This document shows, piece by piece, positions 527-11,636 of a DNA stretch of 12,342 nt. Each line of letters opens with the position of its first letter. Within the stretch, counting starts at the first letter, position 1. The position numbers and the translations under genes are program-made. The stretch is taken from IMG/VR virus record IMGVR_UViG_2529293172_000014. The stretch is one strand, 5' to 3'. The DNA comes from a virus (lineage: Duplodnaviria > Heunggongvirae > Uroviricota > Caudoviricetes). Below the pieces are notes generated by a model. The model did no database searches, had not been told where the DNA came from, and saw only the letters and a program-made list of their open reading frames with translations.

Positions 527-580
527 AATCCCTACCTATACCAACGATGTATTTTTAACTAAACAAAGAGGTTGTTTTTC

Positions 581-1153
581 ATGCAAATTGGCTACATTCG
601 TGTGTCAACAAATGACCAAAACACAGATTTACAAAGAAATGCACTGAACTGCGCAGGATGTGAACTGATTTTTGAAGATAAAATAAGCGGAACAAAGTCA
701 GCCAGACCAGGCTTGAAAAAGCTGCTCAGAACGTTATCAGAAGGAGATACGCTGGTTGTCTGGAAGCTGGATAGGCTTGGCAGAAGTATGAAACACCTTA
801 TCACGCTTATAGAGGAGTTGCGGGAAAAAGGTGTTAATTTCCGTAGTCTGACAGACAGTATTGACACATCAACACCCATGGGGCGTTTCTTTTTTCATGT
901 CATGGGTGCTTTAGCAGAAATGGAACGTGAATTAATTGTTGAGAGAACACTGGCCGGACTGGCAGCTGCACGCGAACAGGGACGCATTGGCGGACGTCGC
1001 CCGAAGTTGACAAAAGAACAACATGAGCAAATAGCGAGGTTGATCGAAAATGGCTACAGCAGGAAACAGTTGGCAATTATTTACGATATCGGTGTATCGA
1101 CGATTTATCGTTATCATCCTGTAGAGAAGCGCCAAACTCAATCTGAGCTGTAA
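581..1153 (+). CDS. cin: Serine DNA invertase, Cin/Gin/Hin/Pin/Min family
   Basis: MQIGYIRVSTNDQNTDLQRNAL... with the catalytic Ser in GYIRVST, conserved VVWKLDRLGRS and MGRFFFHVMGALAEMERELI blocks, and a C-terminal HTH (GYSRKQLAIIYDIGVSTIYRY). ATG at 581 is preceded by AAAGAGG; the TTG at 572 in the ORF track is a less likely start. Symbol cin is chosen from the P1-like context; the gene could equally be a Min-type allele. Confidence 0.9.
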   Translation: MQIGYIRVSTNDQNTDLQRNALNCAGCELIFEDKISGTKSARPGLKKLLRTLSEGDTLVVWKLDRLGRSMKHLITLIEELREKGVNFRSLTDSIDTSTPMGRFFFHVMGALAEMERELIVERTLAGLAAAREQGRIGGRRPKLTKEQHEQIARLIENGYSRKQLAIIYDIGVSTIYRYHPVEKRQTQSEL

Positions 1154-1588: not shown

Positions 1589-1852
1589 ATGACATTTTAT
1601 GTACATATCGTGATGTTATCCCTTCTTGGTGGGGTGTATTCGTATTTGAGTGGGCTATGTGAAAACCGTTACGAGTCTTCATGCAAGAAATTGCTGGCCG
1701 AATGTATTTCCGCCGTACTTGCTGGCTTTATTGGCATGTATCTCGCGGAATATAAGGACATGAATGAAAGCCTTCAGAGCTGCATGGTTCTTATTTTCAG
1801 CGCCAATAGCAGGCTTATTATTGAAGGTTCCAAAAGTCGGTTGAATAGGTAA
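1589..1852 (+). CDS. Hypothetical small membrane protein (two hydrophobic segments)
   Basis: 87-aa ORF with hydrophobic stretches VHIVMLSLLGGVYSYLSGL and ISAVLAGFIGMYLA. No convincing Shine-Dalgarno sequence; lies in an AT-rich intergenic region ahead of the holin gene. Could be a lysis-associated membrane peptide or a spurious ORF. Confidence 0.3.
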   Translation: MTFYVHIVMLSLLGGVYSYLSGLCENRYESSCKKLLAECISAVLAGFIGMYLAEYKDMNESLQSCMVLIFSANSRLIIEGSKSRLNR

Positions 1853-1900
1853 GTCTCTTATGCAACATAACCGGTTGAGAAGTTACTTTGCATACCATTA

Positions 1901-1920
1901 CCTCCTGACAACGTAGGAGG
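1901..1920 (+). promoter_or_regulatory. Hairpin that can sequester the Shine-Dalgarno sequence of the holin gene
   Basis: CCTCCT (1901-1906), 8-nt loop GACAACGT, AGGAGG (1915-1920). The 3' arm is the AGGAGG ribosome-binding site 6 nt upstream of the GTG start at 1927. Confidence 0.35.
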
Positions 1921-1926
1921 GAACTT

Positions 1927-2256
1927 GTGCTTGACACACAGGAATTAGCTCCAGTTGCTATTGCGCTCCTGCTTTCAGTAATTGGTGGGATAGGCACGTT
2001 CCTGATGGATGTCCGAGACGGTCGCCAGTCTGGCAATTTGTTGGGATTGGTTACGGAGATCTTTGTTGCAGTGACAGCTGGCGCGGTGGCGTACCTATTG
2101 GGGCAACACGAGGGCTGGGAGTTATCAATTACGTACTTAATGGTAACGATAGCCAGCAATAACGGTCATGAGGTGATTTCAGGGATGAAACGAGTGAATA
2201 TCGATAGCATTCTGAATGTTCTTACAAGTTTGGTGAAAAAGGGAGGCGGGAAATGA
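1927..2256 (+). CDS. lydA: Holin-like small membrane protein (LydA-like)
   Basis: 109 aa, GTG start with a strong AGGAGG RBS. Hydrophobic segments LAPVAIALLLSVIGGIGTFL and LLGLVTEIFVAVTAGAVAYLLG, charged C-terminus KKGGGK. Position at the head of the dar operon matches recalled P1 lydA. Not alignment-verified. Confidence 0.6.
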   Translation: MLDTQELAPVAIALLLSVIGGIGTFLMDVRDGRQSGNLLGLVTEIFVAVTAGAVAYLLGQHEGWELSITYLMVTIASNNGHEVISGMKRVNIDSILNVLTSLVKKGGGK

Positions 2257-2696
2257 TTGGCTGGGGTGTATGCGTTCTTGCGTTAGCCTTAGCCGATCGC
2301 TATTTGCTAAAACGCAAGGACATCACGCATTTAGAACTTGGTGATGTGGAAATTAAACCGGGTTTCATCCGGGTGCCGTTCAAATACCGGTCTAAATTCC
2401 CGTTTTTGCGCGGCGCAACGGTCAGATATTGGATCCGCGATGTTCAGAAGCCAACGACAGTGATTGAAGGCGAACAACGTTGTCTGACGTCGGCTGAACA
2501 GGGCGAAAACAGTGAATGGTTGTACATACCCACTGAATATATGGGTAAAGGAGAACGGCTGTGGCATTTCAACGTCATGGTTACGCATGGCGACTCGTTC
2601 ATTAACCCGTTGTATCGGATTTTCCCTGTTACTCAGCAAATCCGCAGAAGTTACGTAATAAATCTCGCACAGGATGTGTCAGATGACGAAAAATAA
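2253..2696 (+). CDS. lydB: Antiholin-like protein (LydB-like), N-terminal hydrophobic anchor
   Basis: 147 aa; ATGA start/stop overlap with the preceding gene, RBS AGGGAGG. N-terminal MIGWGVCVLALALA segment then a soluble domain. Assignment by position and size relative to recalled P1 lydB. Confidence 0.5.
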   Translation: MIGWGVCVLALALADRYLLKRKDITHLELGDVEIKPGFIRVPFKYRSKFPFLRGATVRYWIRDVQKPTTVIEGEQRCLTSAEQGENSEWLYIPTEYMGKGERLWHFNVMVTHGDSFINPLYRIFPVTQQIRRSYVINLAQDVSDDEK

Positions 2697-3285
2697 GTAT
2701 GCAACGGTCGATTTTGACCAGGTTAATGAAAAGGGGCTGAAATCCCTTATCGCGGCGATCAATAAAACCGGTGTTACGGTAATTGAGGTTGACTCCAGCA
2801 ACCGCGCAACAACGAAAGATGGCGTTAAAGTTAAAACCGCAAAGCTGGTTCTTAACGACGGACAAATTCTTGCCATACAGGTAAACGATACTGGCGATAT
2901 ATCGTCTGTGAGGCTGAATGGAAAAGCTATTCCTAACGCTCAGTCGCCGGATATCAAGACGCTTGGTACCGTCATGGGGCAAGCGGCCCGCAAAAACTCC
3001 GCAAAATTCCAGAAATCACTGATCGCCAAAGCGAAACGTGTTGCCAATCCGGTAGACAAGAAACCGGCAGTAAAATCCAACTTTCAGCGCCTGCAAGAGG
3101 CAAAACAGCGGAATGCTCAGGTGGTTGCCGCTTATAAATCAGCGCAGAACTCGGTGTCTTTCAATCAACAGCAGATCACTGATTTGCGGGCGAAGCTGGA
3201 TAAGGAGACAGGCCGACTCAATAACGAAAAGGCCCGAAATGGCGAACTCAAACGCCGTCTTAAGCAACTGAAAGCAGGAAATTAA
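2683..3285 (+). CDS. hdf: Hdf-like head-morphogenesis protein of the Dar system (paralogous to the DarA N-terminal region)
   Basis: Start chosen at the second ATG (2683, MTKNKYATV), which has AGGA 8 nt upstream; the 2674 ATG has no spacing for an RBS. Shares LNDGQILAIQV / KNSAKFQ blocks with the downstream DarA-like protein (LSDGQTISILF / KNSAKFQ). C-terminal K/R-rich coiled-coil-like tail. Confidence 0.55.
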   Translation: MTKNKYATVDFDQVNEKGLKSLIAAINKTGVTVIEVDSSNRATTKDGVKVKTAKLVLNDGQILAIQVNDTGDISSVRLNGKAIPNAQSPDIKTLGTVMGQAARKNSAKFQKSLIAKAKRVANPVDKKPAVKSNFQRLQEAKQRNAQVVAAYKSAQNSVSFNQQQITDLRAKLDKETGRLNNEKARNGELKRRLKQLKAGN

Positions 3286-3286
3286 C

Positions 3287-5206
3287 ATGGAACAGTTCAA
3301 TATCAATAAAGGGGTGACGATCAAGCCTGGGCTTGACGTGCTTCCCCCGCCAGTGACTGATGATGAATATCGCGCATTAATGGCCGGTGAGGACCGCTAT
3401 CTGATGACGGAATCCAACACCCTGGAGGAAATCGAGGCTACGTTCTTCTATGACACGCCGATCCACTGGTGTGCTACGGATTTACTGGAGGCGATTAGTT
3501 CTACTCGTTTGCAGTTACACCGGACCATGCAGGCATTTGTCCGGGCATTGAACCAGAAGCTGAATGGTACCGGAATCTCTGCGGGGAGTGATAAAACGGG
3601 GGATGTGGCCCAGAGCGGCGCGCGCGCGATCGGCGGTGCTGAAATTGGCCGGGCACGTAACGTTAACGGGCTGCCGGTCCTGCCAGCCATTATTCCGCTC
3701 AGTGATGGTCAGACTATCAGCATTCTGTTTCATAGCCCGACAGCGGAAAACCGGATCACCAATAGCGATACGCTGGTTGCTTTCCAGTTCTTACTGAATA
3801 AAAAAGACGTTACTCACACCGTTGCTCCGATGAGTGGACGTGATATGACGCTGGCGCAGGTCACCATGAAACTTGCCAACCTTGCAGAGAAAAACTCGGC
3901 AAAATTTCAGCGTGCGCAGAAGAAGAAAAAAGCCCTTGTTGATGAAATAACCCAACTACAGGCTGACAGTGACCAGAAAGAGGATGCCATGAGCGACCTC
4001 GTGGATCAGGTGGCAGCGGTAGAAGGGCAGAAGGTAGATCTGGAGCAGAAAATTAACGCTGTTGCATCGGAAGCGGATTCTCTTTATGAAGAGAATGAGC
4101 GTTTGCAGACGGAGATTGATCAGCTCAATCGCACTGGTGGGCGCGATACCATTGCTCCTGCGGGGATGACTGGTGGACACTCTCGCGCGATGACGGATCG
4201 CCTTGCCAGTATCAAAAATCGTATGCATATGAACGGGGAAGTGACGCTCAGTAATGGTGCATCAATGAAGCAATTCATTGAGGACGGCGAAGGGTATATC
4301 CAGTTAACCGATTCGGATGGCAGCGTGTACATGATCAAGGCTAAATCCATACAGGGTGTGGACATGGCAGATGCGATCGGCAAGCTGTTTAAAGCCTATA
4401 AAGCGGGTAATGTATCGGAATACCTGGTCCAACCAGAAGAACATAAACCGGAAAACGTCGAACCTGAACCAGCGGAGGATACCGGTAGCTCTTCGCCTGA
4501 ACCAGAAGTCTCTGTAGGTGCATATCGATATGCCCTGCAAATGCGTCCGGCGGCCCCTGGCGCAATACCTGAAGGTAACAAAGCAATTCTGCCGCGCCCT
4601 GATGAAGGTGACCCGTATTATGAATATGCACGCTACGGCATTGCTACTTACGATACCCCGCTTTCTGATCAGCAAATGAGTGAGTACGACCTGAAGTTAT
4701 TGCCTCGCGAGGATTCTTTCGACTTCCTGGCGAAGACACTTACTAATGGTCCGTTTGGCAAATATGCACAAAAAGCTCTGGAGCTGGCCACCAGCTCACC
4801 AGACGAGTTCCGCGTAATGCTGAAAACTCAGTTTCAAAAAACTTTCCCCAATATTGCGTTTCCGGGGGGCGCTGGCACCGAGAAAATGGTGCAGAGCATG
4901 ATCAATGCATTGCAGGCCGAAGTCGGTGAGATTACTCAGCCAGAACCTGCCCCGGCACAGCCTGATGAAACGGTTAGCGAAGCAGATGCAGAGGCTAATA
5001 AAGCCATTGAATATCTCAATAACGTGATGGATATGCAAAGCACTGACATGGCGGAGATCCGTAACGCCCGGGGTAATGTCCGGGAAGCGATTGCAGCCCT
5101 TCAGGCTGCCGGGCGTTTTGAGGAAAACGAAGAGCTGGTTAATGGCGCTGCTCGCCACTTGGCTGATCTGCTGGTAGCAATCCAGAAAGCGGGGGTAGCG
5201 GCATGA
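3287..5206 (+). CDS. darA: DarA-like internal head / antirestriction protein
   Basis: 639 aa; starts 1 nt after the hdf stop with an AGGAA RBS. Central coiled-coil-like region (LVDEITQLQADSDQKED...ENERLQTEIDQL) and an acidic Pro/Glu-rich linker (PEEHKPENVEPEPAEDTGSSSPEPE). Size and operon position match recalled P1 DarA. Confidence 0.65.
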   Translation: MEQFNINKGVTIKPGLDVLPPPVTDDEYRALMAGEDRYLMTESNTLEEIEATFFYDTPIHWCATDLLEAISSTRLQLHRTMQAFVRALNQKLNGTGISAGSDKTGDVAQSGARAIGGAEIGRARNVNGLPVLPAIIPLSDGQTISILFHSPTAENRITNSDTLVAFQFLLNKKDVTHTVAPMSGRDMTLAQVTMKLANLAEKNSAKFQRAQKKKKALVDEITQLQADSDQKEDAMSDLVDQVAAVEGQKVDLEQKINAVASEADSLYEENERLQTEIDQLNRTGGRDTIAPAGMTGGHSRAMTDRLASIKNRMHMNGEVTLSNGASMKQFIEDGEGYIQLTDSDGSVYMIKAKSIQGVDMADAIGKLFKAYKAGNVSEYLVQPEEHKPENVEPEPAEDTGSSSPEPEVSVGAYRYALQMRPAAPGAIPEGNKAILPRPDEGDPYYEYARYGIATYDTPLSDQQMSEYDLKLLPREDSFDFLAKTLTNGPFGKYAQKALELATSSPDEFRVMLKTQFQKTFPNIAFPGGAGTEKMVQSMINALQAEVGEITQPEPAPAQPDETVSEADAEANKAIEYLNNVMDMQSTDMAEIRNARGNVREAIAALQAAGRFEENEELVNGAARHLADLLVAIQKAGVAA

Positions 5207-8900: not shown

Positions 8901-9995
8901 TCACGAGAAACTCTTTTCTGATGTCAGCCAACAGTGCTCGTGCATATCTCTTGGTGGTTTTTCGACAAATGCCTCTTCAGCCACATCCTGCCAGGGGATT
9001 TGTTTAGCCCATTCAGTTATAGCGTTATGGTTTGCCGAGAATAACGGTATTGTATAGGCCTTCAGCCAGTCTAATGTGCTGGAGTTGTGTTTTTGAGCGT
9101 GATGTTTCGCATGGTGTTTGGCGATCACGATCGTAGGCACTACCCATTTACTACCGTCAGTCATTGTGAAGTGCATATTACGGGGAACAGATGACTTTTC
9201 CATCAACTCCCGAATCCCTGGGAATTTCCCCAAGATCAATCGGCGATATTCATCGCTATTGCGCCCACCAAACTCTTTGGCTTTGAATTCAAGATATGCT
9301 TCAGAAACGAGAGGTGAATCCTCTGTGTTTAGAGTTATCGCCGTGAAAAAACCAGCAGGATTGTTTTTACTATGGGCCAACCGGTGATGCGAATCATAAA
9401 AGTACCCTTTCTCGCGTTCCGATGGTTTCGACAGCAACAGCAGGCGCGAGTCATAATTGGTTAAATTGCCAGTTATCACTGCATGAGCGCGATCGCTGAT
9501 TTCCGCCGAGTTAATAACGATGAAAAGATCGTGCGGTCCAGTAAAACCAGCCAGAGACTCTTCGTTATTCAGACAATAGGTTATATAGACGCATCCCCAT
9601 GTTTCACTGATATGCACCAACCCTTTGTCAGGGTGTATTCTGAAATAATTGCCAAGAAAAGTGTGTTTTTGGGTAACTCGCTCCCAATAACGGAACATAT
9701 AGTCAATTATTGTTTTTCGACAATCGTTAATCGCAGGAGAAACAACCACTGTACGGGAACACGAATACAGTATTGTTTGCAGGATGCTAATCACTGCCAC
9801 AATAGAGGTTTCCCCAATACCATGTGGTGTGGTGGCAGTGATTTTGGCTCCGGTGTTCTTTATCGCGTTAATAATTTTTGCTTGATGAGGTGTTAACTCA
9901 ATATCAAGCAACTCTTTTGCTGCCAGTTCCCAATTGTCTTTATACCGTTCTATCAGTGCTAACCAGGCAGATTCATTCTGTATACGATTAATCAC
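8901..9995 (-). CDS. Hypothetical protein (364 aa); degenerate P-loop-like GIGETS segment and a His-rich HAKHHAKHHAQKH motif
   Basis: Long minus-strand ORF; GTG start at 9995 with GAGGTGG RBS; overlaps the upstream gene's stop by 8 nt. No motif I can assign with confidence. The layout (LTPHQ...GIGETS...DLFIVINSAE...ITGN) loosely recalls an ATPase domain, but the Walker lysine is absent. Confidence 0.6.
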   Translation of the reverse strand: MINRIQNESAWLALIERYKDNWELAAKELLDIELTPHQAKIINAIKNTGAKITATTPHGIGETSIVAVISILQTILYSCSRTVVVSPAINDCRKTIIDYMFRYWERVTQKHTFLGNYFRIHPDKGLVHISETWGCVYITYCLNNEESLAGFTGPHDLFIVINSAEISDRAHAVITGNLTNYDSRLLLLSKPSEREKGYFYDSHHRLAHSKNNPAGFFTAITLNTEDSPLVSEAYLEFKAKEFGGRNSDEYRRLILGKFPGIRELMEKSSVPRNMHFTMTDGSKWVVPTIVIAKHHAKHHAQKHNSSTLDWLKAYTIPLFSANHNAITEWAKQIPWQDVAEEAFVEKPPRDMHEHCWLTSEKSFS

Positions 9996-10776
9996 TTTCC
10001 ACCTCTTCCGTGGTGTTTTCTTGCAGTTCTGTTAATGCAGCACGACATAGGTTCCGGGCATTGGCTATAGCCACACTTTTGACTTCATCCGTCATCGTGC
10101 AGGTAATGTACTGATCGAGTTCTTCAGCGCGGATGATGCTTTTGCCAATCAGAAACTGTATTTGCCATAGCAGATCGGCATCCATAATCAGAATTTCTGC
10201 CGGGCCTTCAGGGCCAGCCGGGAAGGAAACATAAGACTGTTTGCCCAGGCCGACAACTCGACAACTTGCTTCAAGAATTGCGCGCTTGAGGTCTGACTTT
10301 ATAACGGAAACAGGTTGATTTTCACCAGTGATTACGCCGTTGACATGGAAAGGCATGTAGCTTGAAATACGCTCTACTTTCCACACGCCAGCAAGCGATC
10401 CTTCATGCAGCACAATGGGGGTAACCGCGAGTTTCATCTCACCATATAACTGCTGGCAGATAGCTGGATTGCTGAATACATCTAAAGGCTCACATTCAAA
10501 CAGCGGCGCAATCTGCATGAGGTCCATCATGGTCATCCCTGGGGTACGAGCAGTAATGAATTTGCGCATACCAGTATCCATTGCGCTCCAGATTGCTACA
10601 CCATGCTTTTTGCTCACTTCTTCAGTAAAGCCAAGGTGGCACATGATGGTTTTTTCGATAGCCAGATCAGAGATAGAAACCTTTTCGCCAGGTACTCCAT
10701 CATTATTGATGGTCACTTCGACACTCTGGCCATTACGTAGGCGGTATTGAATGGTTTTAGTATTTTGTGCTGTCAT
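9988..10776 (-). CDS. Hypothetical protein (about 263 aa from ATG 10776)
   Basis: Long minus-strand ORF, translationally coupled to the downstream 8901..9995 gene. Start placed at MTAQNTK (ATG 10776) because the track's extension to 10896 would overlap the small upstream ORF 10791..10973; starts at 10890/10896 cannot be excluded. No recognisable catalytic motif. Confidence 0.5.
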   Translation of the reverse strand: MTAQNTKTIQYRLRNGQSVEVTINNDGVPGEKVSISDLAIEKTIMCHLGFTEEVSKKHGVAIWSAMDTGMRKFITARTPGMTMMDLMQIAPLFECEPLDVFSNPAICQQLYGEMKLAVTPIVLHEGSLAGVWKVERISSYMPFHVNGVITGENQPVSVIKSDLKRAILEASCRVVGLGKQSYVSFPAGPEGPAEILIMDADLLWQIQFLIGKSIIRAEELDQYITCTMTDEVKSVAIANARNLCRAALTELQENTTEEVESD

Positions 10777-10790
10777 AGTCTTTTCTCTGC

Positions 10791-10973
10791 TTAAAAACTG
10801 ATGTATTGCGTCTTCAGGTGGGTTAGGAATGTTTTCCCACCAGCGAAAGCAATATCTCGTGGTGTTCTGTTCGTTAAAAACGCGTGCCATTGCCAACTTT
10901 GGCGTTTTTTAGCGAGTTCGTGCTTTTGTTGGCGTTTGGACCACCGCTTTTCTTTCAGTCGTTTTTTACTCAT
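10791..10973 (-). CDS. Possible small basic protein (60 aa), tightly packed between ssb and the next gene
   Basis: MSKKRLKEKRWSKRQQKHELAKKRQ...; starts 5 nt after the ssb stop and ends 15 nt before ATG 10776. Weak RBS. Could instead be a non-coding spacer; an 8-bp inverted repeat AAAAACGC...GCGTTTTT (10876-10883 / 10903-10910) lies inside it. Confidence 0.3.
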   Translation of the reverse strand: MSKKRLKEKRWSKRQQKHELAKKRQSWQWHAFLTNRTPRDIAFAGGKTFLTHLKTQYISF

Positions 10974-11467: not shown

Positions 11468-11636
11468 TTTTCTTACCTAATAAAATAAATTAATTAGAGC
11501 AATAATGTATATCTTTGAAACGTGGCTAACAAGTGATTTGCATTATCCTGTGCCTTCTAAAGGGATCGAGTCAGTCGGTATTGGCTGTGAATGAGTGTTT
11601 GTCCTGGAGCGTAAAAAATTCGCTTATGAGGTCTTT
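11468..11636. promoter_or_regulatory. Divergent promoter region between ssb (leftward) and lyz (rightward)
   Basis: 169-bp AT-rich non-coding gap between divergently oriented starts; contains TTGAAA (11515-11520) and CATTAT (11541-11546). No promoter element pinned down with confidence. In P1, lyz is a late gene, so an Lpa-type late promoter is expected here. Confidence 0.3.

Follow-up and report, generated by a model that had tools for sequence, protein, structure and literature searches.

Introduction

In bacteriophage T4, the ribosome-binding sites (RBSs) of genes e (lysozyme), soc, 49, and I-TevI are masked by hairpins that hold a late promoter inside their 5' strand, and this type of control has been proven experimentally (Uzan and Miller, 2010; PMC3014915). 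Generic leaders that sequester the Shine-Dalgarno (SD) sequence, such as MS2 coat-gene hairpin variants and RNA thermometers, also include the SD in a local stem. Such elements belong to the functional mRNA itself and are sensitive to stability or temperature.

Lysis in the model temperate phage P1 is under unusually complex control, which involves three holin-like proteins and an antiholin as well as unlinked operons. The holin LydA is lethal when expressed from a plasmid (PMC9025707). In the present study, a stretch of 12,342 nucleotides of viral DNA (IMG/VR record IMGVR_UViG_2529293172_000014; hereafter the window) was analyzed with emphasis on the start of its lydA gene. The initial annotation of this DNA had drawn attention to a hairpin at the lydA RBS and had overlooked the late promoter LPdar, which is annotated directly upstream of lydA in the P1 darA operon (AJ000741), P1 (AF234172), and P7 (AF503408) records.

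Results

Identity and Gene Order of the Window

Sequence comparison identifies the window as DNA of a P1/P7-like punavirus. Between positions 1400 and 2700, it has 99.3-99.5% identity to Escherichia phages vB_EcoM-813R1 and vB_EcoM-673R5 and approximately 91-92% identity to P1 and SJ46; P7 is 99.3% identical from the late promoter on. The features of the region are listed in Table 1, and Pfam matches support the assignments made from gene order. LydA of the window is 99-100% identical to LydA of P1, P7, and SJ46, and its GTG start is the annotated start in the P1 and P7 records. The protein scores 30.1 bits against Phage_holin_3_3 (PF16083; cut-off 28.4), and lydB lies immediately downstream. 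The lydB ATG overlaps the lydA stop codon (ATGA), so translation of lydB is probably coupled to that of lydA. Because of this overlap, the two genes would probably be silenced together.

Table 1. Features of the window around the lydA ribosome-binding site and in the neighboring genes.
Feature	Position	Strand	Remarks
Invertase gene	572-1153	+	Hin-like annotation in closest relative
lydC (accessory holin gene)	1589-1852	+	Pfam PF16083 match; annotated as lydC in close relatives
LPdar "-22 region" (Lpa box)	1880-1888	+	9-bp inverted repeat AAGTTACTT; transferred annotation, identical in AJ000741, AF234172, and AF503408
LPdar -10 hexamer	1893-1898	+	TACCAT; annotated minus_10_signal in P1 and P7 records
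5' arm of hairpin (anti-SD)	1901-1906	+	CCTCCT; in the discriminator/start-site region of LPdar
Predicted late transcript start	~1905-1907	+	Inferred from annotated box and -10 and from promoter geometry
Loop of hairpin	1907-1914	+	GACAACGT; G1907-U1914 is a possible seventh pair
3' arm of hairpin (lydA SD)	1915-1920	+	AGGAGG; 6 nt before GTG at 1927
Second, weaker hairpin	1924-1942	+	CUUGUG (1924-1929) pairs with CACAGG (1937-1942); holds the GUG start
lydA (holin LydA)	1927-2256	+	109 aa; GTG start; Pfam PF16083
CUCC stretches in early lydA coding sequence	1949-1971	+	CUCC 1949-1952 and CUCCU 1966-1970; can pair with the SD in late RNA at equilibrium
lydB (antiholin gene)	2253-2696	+	Pfam PF16084 (8e-104, 344 bits)
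odaE/hdf	2674-3285	+	
darA	3287-5206	+	
ddrA-like and ddrB-like genes	after darA	+	

Transcripts that enter lydA from upstream could have more than one source. The lydC gene lies 74 nt upstream on the same strand, and a predicted early promoter has been described for it (PMC9025707). It is a likely source of read-through transcripts into lydA, and the terminator scan detected no terminator-like site in the lydC-lydA interval (1853-1926). In the window, the invertase gene points toward lydC and lydA, while cin of P1 and P7 is divergent from lydC. Because the invertase gene is co-directional with the holin genes, transcripts that it produces in the lysogen may read through into them in the lineage of the window. 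No C1 operator was found upstream of lydC in the window with up to three mismatches.

Several other features of the region were recorded. The RBS of P7 lydC (locus L094; start at 34667, minus strand) is the most occluded among 110 annotated P7 genes, with an opening energy of 22.4 kcal/mol, 17.9 of which comes from upstream sequence. The RBS of the lydC allele in the window requires 8.2 kcal/mol, far below the P7 allele. The far end of the window contains ssb, a C1 operator-like site, LPlyz, and lyz. The operator-like site (ATTGCTCTAATTAATTT, 11487-11503, minus strand) is the sole C1 operator match in the window; it adjoins ssb and has one mismatch to the consensus. An exact copy of LPlyz (AAGTGATTTGCATTATCCT) is at 11531-11549 on the plus strand, upstream of lyz. 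Between the dar operon and ssb are two minus-strand open reading frames, 8901-9995 (364 aa) and 9988-10896 (302 aa), neither of which has a Pfam match. P7 has nmpC at this position, and the two reading frames may be lineage-specific cargo.

The Late Promoter and Its Transcript Start

The window is identical to P1 and P7 from position 1877 through the lydA start. The annotated box is a 9-bp repeat that constitutes the Lpa-binding site (PMC10695390), and it is separated from the -10 hexamer by the 4-nt spacer TGCA. The sequence thus has the organization of the P1 Lpa-dependent late promoters, namely a 9-bp repeat (AAGTNACTT) near -22, a 4-nt spacer, a TAnnnT -10 hexamer, and no -35 element. This arrangement of box, 4-nt spacer, and TAnnnT hexamer recurs at six more annotated P7 late promoters; for P7 LPsit, the annotated box is 8 nt and the spacer 5 nt.

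The center of the box is at position 1884, which we take to be -22, and +1 would then fall at about 1906. An ordinary sigma-70 spacing of 7-9 nt past the -10 element corresponds to 1905-1907 in the window, and the usual sigma-70 geometry as a whole allows 1904-1908. Guidolin et al. are said to have mapped the LPdar start in 1989. Because the predicted +1 falls inside or just after the 5' arm of the hairpin, the late mRNA would be without all or nearly all of this arm. The late transcript should therefore lack the hairpin, to the extent that annotation and promoter geometry locate the start site correctly.

The LPdar region also marks a mosaic boundary. Four sequence types occur among loci L001-L093, namely those of P1, P7, and the window and one more. 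Up to approximately position 1877 they are strongly divergent, with different lydC alleles, and all four share one sequence starting exactly at GAGAAGTTACTT, the Lpa box. The promoter and leader are exchanged together with lydA, in the manner of a single module. In locus L086 (IMGVR_UViG_2597489893_000001), which lies 57 nt from the contig end, the sequence 5' of the hairpin is unrelated (GGGGTGTACTAATCAACGGGGAGCAGGTC, then ACCTCCTGAC). It has neither the LPdar box nor the -10, and the breakpoint immediately precedes the 5' arm; a rearrangement or an assembly artefact could account for this.

The Hairpin and Predicted Access to the RBS

Positions 1901-1920 read CCTCCTGACAACGTAGGAGG, in which CCTCCT and AGGAGG enclose an 8-nt loop. 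The claim of the initial annotation that the holin SD is part of a perfect 6-bp stem is borne out by both the sequence and RNAfold, and the stem has seven pairs if G1907-U1914 is counted. It is present in the minimum free energy and centroid structures of every context tried. The isolated hairpin has a predicted energy of -9.1 kcal/mol (1901-1920) or -10.7 kcal/mol (1900-1921).

Access to the SD depends strongly on where the transcript is predicted to start. With a 5' end at 1901 or further upstream, the probability that the SD is unpaired is 0.002-0.007 in nearly all cases (0.024 in one context), and it rises from 0.003 to about 0.33 for 5' ends at 1905-1908. Opening of the region from -15 to +2 requires 12.4 kcal/mol with a 5' end at or upstream of 1901, compared to about 6 kcal/mol with a 5' end at 1905-1908, or about 9 when 35 nt of coding sequence are included. 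Folded as far as the start codon, the RNA reaches -10.7 kcal/mol when it begins at the -10 element and -1.7 kcal/mol when it begins at the predicted start site.

The late RNA is not predicted to be fully open. Once the CUCC stretches have been transcribed, the energy for opening its SD rises from about 2 to 5-8 kcal/mol, and at equilibrium the RNA is still partly closed by SD-CUCC pairing and by the second hairpin around GUG. The second hairpin is predicted in long and late RNAs alike. The probability that the start codon is unpaired is ≤0.2 in every context, and <0.05 for all 5' ends at or after 1904. Together with the GUG start, the second hairpin suggests that lydA initiation is intrinsically modest. 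Because the SD of the late RNA can pair with CUCC and GUG is located in a hairpin, the predicted difference in initiation between long and late RNA is also modest, with an estimate of 3-6 kcal/mol, or roughly 4- to 17-fold.

Other readings of the hairpin region were considered and rejected. The hairpin does not resemble an intrinsic (Rho-independent) terminator; it is followed by GAACUUGUG, which has no U-tract, and the terminator scan was silent. Read on the minus strand, the 5' arm gives a mirror SD (AGGAGG) with an ATG 7 nt further on, and the corresponding open reading frame has merely 11 codons. Rfam 15 covariance models gave no match at E ≤ 1 on either strand of positions 1500-2400.

Conservation and Diverged lydA Loci

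The P1-like set consisted of 141 sequences (85 viral or genomic loci and 56 metagenome contigs), in which the lydA 5' untranslated region is invariant save for three single substitutions. A1900C in L057 makes the stem longer, C1901A in L216 removes the outer pair and weakens it, and A1922T in L075 is neutral. The lydA start is ATG instead of GTG in L014. This invariance of promoter and leader extends over no fewer than four different lydC contexts upstream. Because the 5' untranslated region is invariant across the 141 sequences, covariation is uninformative within the P1 clade. Conservation of both arms, which the initial annotation had named as a check on the stem, is thus perfect in P1-like genomes, but the surroundings are conserved likewise and the nearest diverged relatives lack the 5' arm.

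Diverged lydA-lydB-hdf-darA loci were collected from phages, plasmids, genomes, and viral contigs and provided 39 distinct leaders. The closest of these relatives, Cronobacter phage JK004 and Salmonella Newport plasmid pCFSAN001636 (LydA identity 72-74%), have no local SD hairpin; a P1-like box and the -10 hexamer TAACAT are present in both. Loci L145 and L226 have the P1-type box ATGTAACTT, the spacer TCAA, and a -10 of TAAAAT or TACACT. Directly after the -10, a 9-bp arm (CGGACCTTG) pairs with the SD-containing sequence CGAGGTCCG. The fold is -15.4 (L145) or -18.5 kcal/mol (L226) with the -10 region, compared to -1.4 kcal/mol without it. Both loci have an invertase gene directly upstream on the same strand and no lydC.

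In a Pantoea/Enterobacter-type clade (L096-L129, including L097), the -10 region TACCCTC itself forms a helix with GGGGGTA, a sequence covering the SD. A conserved hairpin lies inside this helix, and the fold energy is -15 to -19 kcal/mol vs. -4 to -7 kcal/mol without the -10 region, and L136 and L139 behave similarly to this clade. The -10 and start assignments in the non-P1 clades are our own and place TAnnnT 3 nt past a conserved ACAGACT-like motif.

The L096-L129 leaders have further features of their own. About 20-40 nt 5' of lydA, right after the putative -10, is the hairpin CACCTG-N5-CAGGTG, in which the stem is invariant and the loop varies (ACAAC, ATTAC, and ATAAC). A strong intrinsic terminator is located just upstream of the promoter. 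In L013 and L096, the hairpin shares CCTGACAAC with the P1 hairpin, and the SD (GGGGGG) is 5-6 nt further downstream. Leaders L005, L007-L009, L011-L013, and L096-L163 contain A(C/T)A(G/A/T)ACT followed after 3 nt by TAnnnT, with the forms TACCCT, TACTCT, TATTCT, TACCAT, and TAAGTT among the diverged lydA leaders. Late promoters for an Lpa of different specificity may be marked by this combination. In D6, the -10 rather than the activator box may lie within the palindrome ACTAAGTTAGT.

Comparison with Chance Expectation

The pattern CCTCCT-N3-12-AGGAGG occurs once in the window and in none of 200 shuffles. Comparison of the fold energy with shuffled controls, another check named in the initial annotation, favors the hairpin locally (61-nt fold, z = -2.4; 5 of 200 shuffles fold equally well) but not over 141 nt, where z is only -1.0. 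The lydA RBS is by far the most occluded among six window genes tested. Among 110 annotated P7 genes, it ranks 10th in opening energy and 8th in the contribution of upstream sequence. The hairpin is real and belongs to the upper tail of such structures, and it is not an extreme outlier.

Long-range RBS occlusion was rejected as evidence. Most clades exceed the 90th percentile of P7 genes in this respect, yet shuffling indicates that the signal is largely compositional. When the sequence upstream of the start site was dinucleotide-shuffled, occlusion was 9.4 ± 2.2 kcal/mol compared to 11.6 kcal/mol observed, and 30 of the 200 shuffles reached the observed value (7 of 200 with the P7 upstream context). 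A pyrimidine-rich upstream region beside a G-rich SD explains much of the long-range signal.

A stricter, more local test was based on the 13 nt that a late transcript is predicted to lack (the -10 hexamer and discriminator), which were replaced by 600 TAnnnT-type 13-mers from the P7 genome. The result was significant for the window (p = 0.027), L145 (p = 0.002), L097 (p = 0.012), L136 (p = 0.027), and L139 (p = 0.030). The test was individually non-significant for 10 of the 15 clade representatives, and the D6 type, L130-L135, L131, and L141-L143 were among the non-significant results. Fisher combination across the 15 representatives, which are not fully independent clades, gave p of approximately 0.001. 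Because a leader of about 20 nt puts almost any arm 5' of the SD near the start site, the proximity of the arm to the start site carries little weight.

Other P7 Late Promoters

A related arrangement is present at P7 LPsit (L094, AF503408, approximately 49426-49480, minus strand), which contains the 11-bp inverted repeat CTCGTAGAATC...GATTCTACGAG. The -10 hexamer TAGAAT is overlapped by the segment CUCGUAGAAUC, and the pairing partner of this segment, GAUUCUACGAG, extends into the tubA SD. Opening of this RBS requires 15.4 kcal/mol in read-through RNA vs. 3.9 kcal/mol in late RNA, and none of 200 shuffles reached the observed value. LPpac has a weaker, non-significant masking effect. Promoter-dependent RBS masking was not found at P7 LPlyz, LPpro, LPmat, LPs, or LP23.

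LPsit is like LPdar in that the 5' arm overlaps the -10 of a late promoter, the 3' arm reaches the SD of the first gene, and RBS occlusion is predicted for read-through RNA specifically. It differs in serving a tail-tube/baseplate operon (tubA/sit), in its 11-bp stem, in its stronger statistical signal, and in its location outside the window. P1-like plasmid prophages may embed anti-RBS sequences in Lpa-dependent late promoters generally, with LPdar, LPsit, possibly LPpac, and the divergent lydA clades as examples; we advance this tentatively and consider it rather doubtful. If it were true, the choice of promoter would decide whether a message is translatable, and lethal or late genes would be shielded from read-through in the lysogen and in the early phase without terminators.

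Discussion

We propose that the hairpin is a promoter-embedded mask of the lydA RBS that acts on read-through transcripts and is released on LPdar transcripts, and we consider the chances of this to be about even. Transcripts entering from upstream, from the lydC early promoter or, in the lineage of the window, from the co-directional invertase gene, would carry both arms. They would fold the SD into a stem of about -10 kcal/mol and allow only poor translation of the lethal holin and of lydB, whose translation is probably coupled to it. In the late phase, RNA polymerase with Lpa would start LPdar transcripts at approximately 1905-1907, without the 5' arm. The resulting 20-nt leader is predicted to be almost unstructured, and LydA would be made only at this stage. 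The hairpin was established directly, as were its location with respect to the annotated promoter and the difference in predicted energy. Recurrence of the same architecture with unrelated sequence in L145/L226, the L097 clade, and LPsit strengthens the case for a mask. Where exactly the late transcript starts, whether read-through occurs, and how translation is affected are matters of inference.

The hairpin could also have no selected function, if a complement of AGGAGG arose by chance 8 nt upstream of it and has been conserved only as part of a nearly clonal LPdar-lydA module. This explanation has an appreciable probability, although it falls well short of an even chance. Positions 1877-1960 are wholly invariant in P1-like genomes, so conservation of the arms says nothing specific about pairing, and the nearest diverged relatives are without the hairpin. 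Shuffled upstream sequence occludes the RBS almost equally (30 of 200), lydA is only 8th to 10th among the 110 P7 genes, and the 141-nt fold has a z of only -1.0. Chance alone accounts less well for the exact pattern, which occurred in 0 of 200 shuffles, and for the local 13-mer test (p = 0.027 for the window and about 0.001 combined across clades). It also leaves aside the independent, non-homologous hairpins with the same layout in L145/L226 and LPsit, and the gene in question is a lethal holin downstream of other transcription units.

The initial annotation suggested a brake on holin translation that would help to set the time of lysis, which assumes that the hairpin is part of the late lydA mRNA. 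Its view that a hairpin occludes the SD of the holin gene stands, but a start at approximately 1905-1907, as predicted, would remove the 5' arm from the late mRNA, and we consider a constant brake of this type improbable. Holin dosage sets lysis timing, the hairpin is stable, and the GUG start and second hairpin are features of weak initiation that would suit a brake; the SD of the late RNA can also still pair with downstream CUCC (probability unpaired about 0.33). However, the brake would require a start at or upstream of 1901, at most 3 nt past the -10 element at 1893-1898. Such a start fits neither sigma-70-type geometry nor the annotated "-22" name of the box, and from a start at 1905-1908 the local fold is just -1.7 kcal/mol. 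A mask for read-through is more likely than a timer on the late mRNA. SD pairing might instead be a by-product of another role of the inverted repeat, such as a DNA-level site at the LPdar +1 (an operator, or a site affecting promoter clearance) or a 5'-terminal stem-loop that stabilizes the dar mRNA. In the L097/L013 clade, CACCTG-N5-CAGGTG occupies the same place after the -10 with the SD outside the hairpin, and the occurrence of CCTGACAAC in the L013, L096, and P1 hairpins hints at an ancestral post-promoter hairpin. Nevertheless, the predicted P1 start would cut the 5' arm, so that no 5'-terminal hairpin could form, other P7 late promoters have no common element after the -10, and we know of no protein that binds this inverted repeat. 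We give such a role little credence.

A functional mask would explain why a holin gene located directly downstream of early or constitutive genes (lydC and the invertase gene) in a plasmid prophage does not kill the host. It would also extend the principle of T4 gene e to a temperate phage with a different late-transcription system. Clones of lydA or of the dar operon that include the 26 nt upstream of the SD should then differ greatly in expression from clones that lack them. If the mask is not functional, the structure is an ordinary chance hairpin.

The promoter in the window is identical in sequence to the annotated LPdar of the P1 darA operon, which has no -35 element. The accessible P1 papers that were searched mention neither a mapped LPdar start nor the hairpin, nor that the LPdar start region is complementary to the lydA SD. 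The stability of the stem is in the range known to reduce initiation. Compared to the MS2 variants and RNA thermometers, the lydA locus has the SD in a similar local stem, but the main mRNA is predicted to lack the 5' arm.

The closest likeness is to the masks of the T4 e type. On long transcripts initiated upstream, the SD is in a helix in both systems, and in the window this helix is stable (6-7 bp, -9.1 to -10.7 kcal/mol). The T4 late promoter is placed so that its transcripts lose the 5' strand, and the annotated -10 of LPdar predicts the like for P1. Gene e, like lydA, is a lysis gene for which premature expression would be harmful. The promoters differ, with Lpa/sigma-70 and a -22 box in P1 and gp55 with TATAAATA in T4. 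The P1 stem is shorter than those of T4 (6-7 bp, about -10 kcal/mol), and there is no sequence homology. P1-type phages are temperate, and long transcripts would likely come from prophage or early transcription (lydC, invertase) rather than from strong early promoters as in T4. The estimated effect on lydA is 4- to 17-fold, which is below the 100-fold effect that has been reported for lysozyme of T4. The promoter and the genes are already known, as is the T4 principle, and the lydA mask is probably a further case of the T4-type design.
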